From an uncultured virus (IMG/VR IMGVR_UViG_2061766007_000468) (Duplodnaviria; Heunggongvirae; Uroviricota; Caudoviricetes), in the IMG/VR virus record IMGVR_UViG_2061766007_000468: DNA of 20,000 nt. The stretch is one strand, 5' to 3'. A model generated the notes under the pieces. That model worked only from the letters and a program-made list of their open reading frames with translations. It ran no database searches and was not told where the DNA came from. Both the position numbers and the translations under genes were made by a program. Shown piece after piece: positions 511-3,920 of the stretch (positions are counted from its first letter, which is position 1; each line of letters begins with the position of its first letter).

Positions 511-1114
511 GTATGTAATCGGCAATGCTTTTATACTGCTCAAGTGTGCCCCACGATCCCAGACGTGCGCACGTAAGTAAAAAATATTTTTTATGGTCTG
601 CGACGGTCTGGCCATGTTGGGACACTTCAGTCCCGTCGGAACCGTGCCAGTCAGTCGGCGCTGGCGGCACAAAAAAAGCCCCAGGTCNNNNNNNNNNNNN
701 NNNNNNNNNNNNNNNNNNNNNNNNNNNNNNNNNNNNNNNNNNNNNNNNNNNNNNNNNNNNNNNNNNNNNNNNNNNNNNNNNNNNNNNNNNNNNNNNNNNN
801 NNNNNNNNNNNNNNNNNNNNNNNNNNNNNNNNNNNNNNNNNNNNNNNNNNNNNNNNNNNNNNNNNNNNNNNNNNNNNNNNNNNNNNNNNNNNNNNNNNNN
901 NNNNNNNNNNNNNNNNNNNNNNNNNNNNNNNNNNNNNNNNNNNNNNNNNNNNNNNNNNNNNNNNNNNNNNNNNNNNNNNNNNNNNNNNNNNNNNNNNNNN
1001 NNNNNNNNNNNNNNNNNNNNNNNNNNNNNNNNNNNNNNNNNNNNNNNNNNNNNNNNNNNNNNNNNNNNNNNNNNNNNNNNNNNNNNNNNNNNNNNNNNNN
1101 NNNNNNNNAAAATA

Positions 1115-2845: not shown

Positions 2846-2965
2846 TAGTAGTCTGAACCGGAGTCGAACCAGTAACTACGGATCGGGTTCCCAGACAGAT
2901 GTTGCTAGCTAGTCTATCTGGCTGATTTTTCCGTCCGTCGCATTTACCAATTAAGCTATCAGACC
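2846..2965 (-). ncRNA. tRNA-like RNA with a 51-nt structured segment replacing the anticodon loop (interrupted tRNA or tRNA mimic)
   Basis: Acceptor GGTCTGA/TCAGACT, TA-GCTT-AATTGGTAA-ATGC D arm, ACGGA/TCCGT anticodon stem, ACTGG-TTCGACT-CCGGT T arm, 3' A-CTA; no assignable anticodon. Confidence 0.75.
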
Positions 2966-3113
2966 GGGTAAAATATAATAAAGGGAAGCCGGTGAACGAA
3001 CCTCCTGCATGGTTAAAAAATATTTACCGACGGTGGCGGTGTGTTGTGGCTGGGTGTGTTAGTCCCAGGCCACCGTCGGCTGCCCTCAGGGAGTAGGGCA
3101 AATNNNNNNNNNN

Positions 3114-3437
3114 CTGGAGGAGCATGAGGAAGCACTTGACCGCCATGTCGTAGGGGTCACGGCACGTCTTGCAGAACTTCCAAGAGTCGACGCCTATACG
3201 GTCGCCCATTCTGGAGTCCTTGCACAGATCGAACTCGAATCCTTCGCACGTGCCATTGAGGCAGATGGTATCGCCGAGCGTGACGGACGAGATCAGTCCG
3301 GCCTTGATTTCCCCAGACATGACAGCGGAATTGAAGGTAGCTCTGACCTTTTCCATCTGGTCGAGCATTTCCTTGGGGAATTCGACGGTTTCGTTTATTT
3401 TCTTGAGGTTCGGTTTCCAGTAGTTAGTGTAACCCAT
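3114..3437 (-). CDS. Conserved phage/plasmid hypothetical protein (MGYTxYW...FCKTxRxPYD type), 3' end in gap
   Basis: Motifs MGYTNYW and WKFCKTCRDPYDMAV recalled from an uncharacterised mobile-element family; RBS and repeat upstream. Confidence 0.75.
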
Positions 3438-3512
3438 GATTAAATCTCCTTTTGGTTGTGTGTGTGGAAAGAATAACCCGGCAGGGCAGTCCCGCCGGGC
3501 GGCGGCCAGTTC

Positions 3513-3920
3513 CTAGAACTCTTGGATCTTGTCGTCGACCGTCATCAGAGCTTCGAAGTCGGTACCACCGTCCAGATCGGCGATGTCGTCGATATGGTTC
3601 TGGAAGAATTTTTTAAGCCAGCTGGCTTCACGTGCCGTGAGAACCAGGGTGCTCTTCGGAACATCGTGCTCGACGATACTCAGGCAGAAGTCGCCGAACT
3701 GGTAGCCGTTGAGCTTGACGCAGTCGGCAGCATTGATATGCTCGGTATGGGCATGGTTAGGCCATTTGTTGAATTCGTCGATCTCTTCGTTCATACGATC
3801 GGCGACGAACTTGGCCGCTGCCTTCTTGGACGTGAACAAAGGCGGATAGGACAATGTGTCCGTGCCCATGCAGACACGCTTCATTCCGGACACTGTGTAA
3901 AATTTTCTTTTCTTAGCCAT
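3513..3920 (-). CDS. Hypothetical protein, 135 aa
   Basis: Complete ORF between repeat copies 3964 and 3487, RBS AACCAAGGAG. Confidence 0.85.
   Translation of the reverse strand: MAKKRKFYTVSGMKRVCMGTDTLSYPPLFTSKKAAAKFVADRMNEEIDEFNKWPNHAHTEHINAADCVKLNGYQFGDFCLSIVEHDVPKSTLVLTAREASWLKKFFQNHIDDIADLDGGTDFEALMTVDDKIQEF

Follow-up and report, generated by a model that had tools for sequence, protein, structure and literature searches.

We identified a tRNA-shaped gene on the minus strand of a 20,000-nucleotide stretch of viral DNA (IMG/VR record IMGVR_UViG_2061766007_000468, referred to here as the window) that probably encodes a conserved, non-decoding phage RNA built on a tRNA body. The gene has a cloverleaf with an anticodon arm of about 18 bp, ends in CTA, and stands alone among small genes of early type. 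Its parts are as follows, in window coordinates.

2846..2965, minus strand (read from 2965 to 2846): tRNA-shaped noncoding RNA gene, 117 nt to discriminator A73, plus CTA; matches Rfam RF00005 and has a syntenic homolog
2959..2965, minus strand: 5' strand of the acceptor stem, pairing with 2856-2850; 7 bp, with G1-U72 and no G3-U70
2940..2956, minus strand: D arm, with a 4-bp stem, one bulged pyrimidine (2942) on its 3' strand, and a loop with A14, A15 and GG
2934..2938, minus strand: 5' strand of the anticodon stem, pairing with 2882-2878; 5/5 pairs in both homologs, with one double-sided change
2883..2933, minus strand: 51-nt insert, with a 3-bp helix (2933-2931 with 2886-2884), an A-rich internal loop, a 10-bp helix and a 15-nt apical loop
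2905..2912, minus strand: 8-nt self-complementary word in the apical loop
2857..2877, minus strand: variable loop of 4 nt, with U48 able to pair with A15, followed by the T arm, whose loop is TTCGA
2846..2849, minus strand: discriminator A and CTA, the same in the homolog

The preliminary description of this DNA had claimed a tRNA-shaped RNA with all four stems and 51 nt inside the anticodon stem, and had proposed Rfam and ARAGORN in intron mode as checks, both of which matched the element as a tRNA. The Rfam tRNA model (RF00005) scored it at 43.8 bits (cut-off 29; E 1.6e-6) and aligned it with a long insertion in the anticodon loop, which bears out the claimed shape, and this was the sole above-cut-off match among the four listed for the window. 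ARAGORN called no gene for the element without intron mode, and with it called Phe(GAA) with a 44-nt intron. Among the hallmarks of tRNA, U8, A14, the D-loop GG, the TTCRA loop and the 15:48 pair (A15/U48 in both homologs) were present; a 7-nt anticodon loop with U33 was not, as 51 nt (window) or 55 nt (homolog) lie inside the stem, with G33 in both. What was described earlier as one mismatch in the D stem is better explained by 4 bp and a single bulged pyrimidine, a register that the homolog retains with two double-sided changes. Whole-gene folding z-scores were modest (-1.6 in the window, -1.4 in the homolog).

The window is broken by 34 N gaps, many of them flanked by duplicated pieces (e.g. 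2540-2760), which is typical of mixed-strain scaffolding. The element, which lies in an N-free block of this gapped window, is not an assembly artefact, because contigs of other studies match it: those of three studies span the whole gene with zero differences, and that of a fourth covers 103/120 bases. The runs that gave these contigs were picked for words shared with the stretch, and their identity is therefore evidence of the gene's reality, not of selection.

A single homolog was found, at L130:6607-6730 in the 348-kb record of a T4-like jumbo phage (G001), where it is syntenic. The two genes are identical at 87/124 positions (70%), compared to 82/107 (77%) for third codon positions of the adjoining gene, and 67 of the 68 stem cells are paired across the two orthologs. 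Fourteen of the 34 pairs differ between them (seven double-sided, six one-sided and one broken), such that 13 of these 14 stay standard pairs, although these counts lean towards structure, as the structure was itself derived from the only two sequences that differ. A pairing count as high was reached in 6 of 500 shuffles, and slid registers paired 25-51%. The acceptor has 7/7 pairs in both homologs, with two double-sided and two one-sided changes, and the T stem has 5/5 pairs in both, with one double-sided and two one-sided changes. Also common to both orthologs are G33, the bulged D-stem pyrimidine, the A15/U48 combination, and an apical loop that contains an 8-nt palindrome. This two-sequence covariation is suggestive of, rather than formal proof for, a conserved structure, and the comparison shows a pattern of selection that appears to act on the shape of the insert and body and not on an anticodon.

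G33, G1-U72, a possible empty-site allele (described below), the gene's absence from most clade records and its lack of a conserved promoter would all be expected of a decayed tRNA pseudogene, or of a chance or mobile insertion. We nonetheless regard this explanation as very improbable, because the stems stay paired at near-neutral divergence (13/14 changed pairs) and the insert helix is better conserved than the acceptor: 28/35 bases are identical in the insert helix and its internal loops, 8/14 in the acceptor and 11/20 in the D arm. The insert is the best-conserved part of the gene, and no second copy of it was found in the window or in G001. The preliminary description had named homologs with a normal loop and an unconserved insert as the mark of such decay; the sole homolog instead keeps the insert, with covarying stems, which supports the tRNA mimic that had been offered as one reading.

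Within the insert, the 10-bp helix joins 2925-2916 with 2900-2891, with G at position 33. The hairpin register proposed earlier (CCAGATAGA/TCTGTCTGG) is the minimum-energy fold of the window, but 3/9 of its pairs are broken in the homolog; an alternative register, 4 nt further 5', fits both homologs, with 1/10 pairs broken, in the window. The window arm folds better than 987 of its insert shuffles (13/1000 fold as well), and the homolog arm is weaker by this measure (99/1000 as good, not significant). At the place of the 8-nt word, the apical loop of the homolog has a different 8-nt palindrome, arising by two symmetric changes; the chance of such palindromes in loop shuffles was 1.6% and 6.7%, and they were noticed post hoc. 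No complement of the insert longer than 11 nt was found elsewhere in G001, and an antisense role for the insert was rejected on this ground.

The ribozyme core of group I and group II introns measures some 200 nt or more, and archaeal and eukaryotic tRNA introns have either a bulge-helix-bulge or a base 32 that pairs with intron position -3. As an intron, the insert would be 44-48 nt long, and it gave no Rfam group I or group II intron match at E up to 5. It might instead be protein-spliced, with a nuclease removing the 44-48-nt intron and the phage RtcB ligating the halves, as has been proposed for the introns of Lak megaphages. In keeping with this, ARAGORN in intron mode at its default threshold accepted both the window and L130 genes, each of them has C32-N33-G34NN-A37-A38 on the 5' side (with G34NN being GAA in the window and GGC in L130), and the search for RtcB that had been suggested with the preliminary description found this ligase encoded by the relative G001. 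However, RtcB is present in four of five records, three of which lack the element, and so is not specific to element carriers, and the splicing endonuclease PF01974 was found in 0/5 phage records (controls: 4 archaea of 14). None of eight registers gives U33 in the window, which has A33 in the register where L130 has U33; array tRNAs of G001 have U33 in 40/42 cases and G33 in 0/42, as against G33 in both orthologs of the element. The ARAGORN isotypes conflict between orthologs, being Phe cut at 39 in the window and Ala cut at 33 in L130, and intact Phe(GAA) and Ala(GGC) genes are already present in the G001 array. The window body does resemble a bacterial tRNA-Phe, but this match is biased, having been retrieved with a pattern derived from the gene itself; L130 has no G3-U70, and the best matches of its body are not Ala. 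A Phe or Ala identity for the bodies was rejected. Neither a bulge-helix-bulge nor an anticodon-intron pair was found in the window, and L130 has the base-32 pair together with two formal bulge-helix-bulge matches that would break the main helices. The joint of an insert-free allele was not seen in contigs of four runs, which show presence and not absence. The missing U33 register, the conflicting isotypes, the lack of a bulge-helix-bulge in the window and the lack of an endonuclease in the five records disfavor the protein-spliced tRNA that the preliminary description had entertained, and we consider it unlikely.

That description had also held short tRNA inserts to be only archaeal or eukaryotic, which overlooks those of Lak megaphages. 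In the rows of Table S6 part 4 drawn on here, these 'enigmatic' introns are 79-114 nt long and AT-rich (PMC6784885); a word resembling a T loop occurs in them, one of them is itself a nested tRNA, and the genes keep U33 and a clear anticodon (PMC6784885). An insert-free allele exists for Lak (Devoto et al. 2019; PMC6784885, 10.1101/356790). Like these, the element belongs to a jumbo phage and is a tRNA gene whose anticodon loop carries a conserved insert too short for group I or II (PMC6784885, 10.1101/356790). Unlike them, as far as the portions of those sources used here describe them, its insert of 44-48 nt forms one hairpin, it has G33, no consistent anticodon and a D-stem bulge, and it lies outside the tRNA array. 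Removal of a Lak-type insert would leave a normal loop with U33 and one isotype, which removal from the element does not.

The features of the gene's flanks are listed here.

2966..3026, minus strand: variable upstream linker, which holds TATTAT; other rumen strains and the homolog have a GC-rich hairpin at this place
3027..3103, minus strand: upstream double hairpin, 3' of the neighboring gene; 75/77 bases identical in L130
2790..2825, minus strand: intrinsic-terminator-like hairpin with T run (2825-2797)
3117..3437, minus strand: upstream gene of about 148 aa, cut by an N gap; of no convincing family; fixes synteny
3472..3493, minus strand: nearest promoter-like cassette (GGGACTG, 11 nt, TATT), before the upstream gene

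The A-CTA end remarked on in the preliminary description is present but is no oddity, as it is the usual tRNA end of the clade: an N73-CTA end was found in 32 of the 42 array tRNAs of G001, none had CCA, and related phages were alike in alignments. A-CTA as a defect was thus rejected; sharing the normal end of the phage's tRNAs speaks for the element being processed as they are and against damage. The CTA ends of the G001 array (L164:3100-20000 and L165:1-400) occur in a phage with an encoded enzyme of the CCA-adding type. The TATTAT box was likewise located (2980-2975) but is not conserved, being absent in the homolog and altered in 2/2 other contigs spanning the site, and it was rejected as a promoter. 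No sigma-70 promoter was found upstream of the gene, and there is no conserved promoter directly upstream. The downstream terminator that had been noted stands as a terminator-like hairpin with a T run; at this place, the homolog has an unrelated hairpin and no clean T run.

The neighboring upstream gene is 83% identical in L130 and has 60 homologs, and it matched no family over cut-off in Pfam or PHROGs. The cassette before it consists of an inverted repeat around GGGACTG, 11 nt and TATT, followed by a CAACC-AAGGAG leader. There are 22 copies of GGGACTG on the minus strand of the window (e.g. 3493, 3970, 5592), most of them just before small genes, and 53 plus-strand sites in G001, most between 232 and 297 kb. 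The cassette is likely to be a phage early promoter.

The double hairpin at 3027-3103, with 75/77 bases identical compared to 85% in the coding neighbor, is a candidate for a regulatory RNA or promoter element of its own. Being so well conserved in the homolog and probably co-transcribed, it could be the RNA that the element serves: the tRNA shape would then be a processing signal, at which an RNase P cut matures the 3' end of the upstream RNA, or a carrier from which the insert is released as a hairpin RNA. We consider this decidedly improbable, as a processing signal would need no conserved insert and the insert lacks a complement over 11 nt elsewhere in G001. A 67-nt contig of run X5, of which only 30 letters lie on the stretch (borderline, and under the detection bar), joins the downstream flank directly to the upstream hairpin across 2843-2966. 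It may represent a possible allele that lacks the whole gene and keeps the upstream part, which also speaks against a processing signal. The hairpin just upstream of the gene in the homolog (L130:6528-6606) and in loose ends of X5 has CCTCCTT, the anti-Shine-Dalgarno word, in its loop; the window version is without it.

Small genes follow one another along a single strand of the window, many with a promoter-like cassette in front of them, and the only family assignment among them is a GP88-like protein. The runs that match the stretch best are labeled bovine gut or gut metagenome. No RNA run was among the public runs listed as containing it; one run (X20) is labeled metatranscriptomic but is probably DNA and so does not bear on expression. 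In G001, a Pfam scan, which covered 206/360 predicted proteins and may therefore have missed small RNA-processing genes, found a T4-like capsid, portal and terminase, as well as RtcB, TROVE/Ro60, Thg1 and an enzyme of the CCA-adding type. RtcB, TROVE, Thg1 and CCA enzymes have been described as an RNA-repair kit of jumbo phages (PMC7824862). The array of 42 tRNAs lies about 85 kb from the element and includes the intact Phe(GAA) and Ala(GGC) genes mentioned above. The G001 capsid has no cultured match over 32%, and one Fibrobacter-type domain is only a hint at the host. From this context, the window is very likely part of a variable, early-type region of a rumen jumbo phage.

Model R1 was searched against 44 of the 64 capsid-related records (the 20 left out were all <10 kb) and gave a full-length match only in G001, although divergent copies could be missed. 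Because the element is absent from 43 of the 44 clade records searched, including four of the five that are at least 90% complete and many that are fragments, it is accessory. In viral contigs, the exact D-arm and T-arm patterns gave no matches each, and the insert pattern gave one locus, G001 itself. The T-arm pattern in metagenome contigs gave nine loci and no homolog (two bacterial Phe, one Gln and six others), and the upstream-hairpin pattern gave G001 and one chance match only. The 26 loci that matched the insert pattern in genome contigs had a best model score of 16.9 bits and were read as chance. A search for the GP88 neighbor returned G001 only, and blastn against cultured phages returned only T-arm scraps. 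RF00005 on 15 records gave long matches only in G001, G031 and G034; the latter two were rejected as homologs, as they belong to another family, described below. No description of this RNA was found in the literature searched, which was largely open-access and took in bioRxiv preprints without their supplements; as kinds, both tRNA-like RNAs of phages and short inserts in tRNAs are already known.

In tmRNA, the tRNA-like domain has the top half of a tRNA, a long helix replaces the anticodon arm, and G3-U70 and a tag frame are present. Unlike tmRNA, the element has a D stem and neither tag frame nor pseudoknots, with U3-A70 and G3-C70 in the two homologs, and ARAGORN and Rfam found no tmRNA in the window. 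The T4 stable RNAs RNAC and RNAD (species 1 and 2), of 119-139 nt, have an open function in the accounts consulted (PMC9697503, PMC12685909; NC_000866). The element is of the same phage stable-RNA size class, and RNAC, like it, ends in a T arm. Unlike the element, RNAC and RNAD have predicted folds without a D arm or cloverleaf, have no RF00005 match and lie in a tRNA cluster; they scored 10.7 bits on the element's model and are not homologous to it. The closest working model is the 'tRNA scaffold', in which E. coli processes engineered tRNAs that have an RNA instead of the anticodon loop, and the products are stable there (Ponchon et al.; PMC3753655). Here, too, the acceptor, D and T arms are kept and a hairpin cargo sits at the anticodon loop; unlike this artificial system, as presented in the sections used, the element is natural, its cargo is conserved and its processing is putative (PMC3753655).

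As a non-decoding RNA on a tRNA body, the element would probably owe its transcription to the promoter cassette at 3493, through read-through. As with the other tRNAs of the phage, it would be cut out by RNase P together with a 3' trimming enzyme; CCA would be added by a CCA-adding enzyme of host or phage, and the RNA would persist unspliced. It would not be able to enter the decoding site. The tRNA body would give it precise ends and stability, as in the engineered scaffold, with the arm as the working part, and the conserved extended arm may be a ligand for a protein or an RNA. Its most likely job within this non-decoding reading is probably counter-defence or host takeover, for which the basis is location and analogy. 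About half of the weight of the reading would go to a competitor for a host tRNA-binding protein, and the next share to a phage-protein partner such as Ro60. The early-type accessory place, the patchy presence, the possible empty site and the acceptor, which changes faster than synonymous sites (8/14 identical), are in keeping with a part in conflict between phage and host, for instance as a competitor for acceptor-reading toxins, but the same picture would result from horizontal exchange.

Some host toxins recognize base pairs of the acceptor stem, and phages use tRNAs to counter them (PMC11559606). It is conceivable, though rather unlikely in all of its parts, that the element is a natural tRNA-scaffold counter-defence RNA in which the fast-changing acceptor would be bait for acceptor-reading toxins, the anticodon-less body would be uncleavable, and the conserved arm would bind a protein and dimerize via its self-complementary loop. 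Phage tRNA genes are usually read as a decoding supply, and those with short inserts have been filed as pseudogenes or unexplained introns. The ortholog pair points to phage tRNA genes that are retained for a non-decoding job, and the element, which is short and easy to make, bears on the question raised by the Lak introns and the T4 stable RNAs.

Since G001 encodes TROVE, we also considered whether the element could be an unpermuted Y-RNA-like partner of the phage Ro60, with the extended arm at the place of the Ro60-binding helix in YrlA. The design occurs in the clade, as two other members have tRNA genes with an anticodon-arm hairpin insert directly upstream of TROVE. This partnership is nevertheless improbable: the element lies about 92 kb from TROVE in G001, the GNCGAAN0-1G motif was found in 0/2 homologs, a profile of the TROVE-linked inserts does not match the element, and permuted T-AS-D units that adjoin TROVE in G001 (read by eye) can fill the Y-RNA role. 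YrlA RNAs are described as permuted (T, closed acceptor, D), with GNCGAAN0-1G, and as lying within 4 kb of Ro60 (PMC4201824). The element is like them in mimicking a tRNA that does not decode, in keeping D and T arms, in having a long helix at the place of the anticodon arm, and in its occurrence in phages with Ro60 (Chen et al. 2014, PMC4201824). It is unlike them, as they are portrayed in the parts of that paper used here, in being unpermuted with an open acceptor, in lacking GNCGAAN0-1G, and in not lying within 4 kb of Ro60 (PMC4201824). Judged on these sequence features, the element is not a member of YrlA, and the clade plainly uses extended-arm tRNA bodies.

The permuted units of G001, at L164:10700-11250, comprise three or four tRNA-like units of YrlA-like topology just upstream of TROVE. 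They gave no Rfam match at the gathering level and no match to the profile of TROVE-linked inserts, and their likeness to the inserts of G031 and G034 is by eye only. These inserts belong to a separate family of unpermuted phage tRNA genes in which a 40-66-nt hairpin interrupts the anticodon stem on its 5' strand, near position 28/29.

L295:370-501, 604-729, 3241-3376 and 3631-3768: loci of the separate insert family in G031
L296:542-682 and 849-983, minus strand: loci of the separate insert family in G034

The genes of this family in G031 and G034 adjoin the TROVE/Ro60 gene, directly upstream of it, and the family was also seen in L047, L085, L014 and L108. Some of its genes have perfect anticodon arms (Cys GCA with U33 at L295:604-729) and others have lost them, and Rfam matches them as tRNA only. 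They may be intermediates between tRNA and Y RNA, or true short introns. A scan with loose criteria, for a D arm and a T arm separated by 62-92 nt, gave at least 120 loci in L010-L129 (e.g. L032, L045, L063, L073, L086, L100, L124), with TROVE within the 600-base flanks of 2/120 among the loci listed. A CAGCWA or GGTTA(C)T word occurred in 39/123 among the matches listed, many of which consist of a hairpin and ACAGCAA before an intact anticodon arm.
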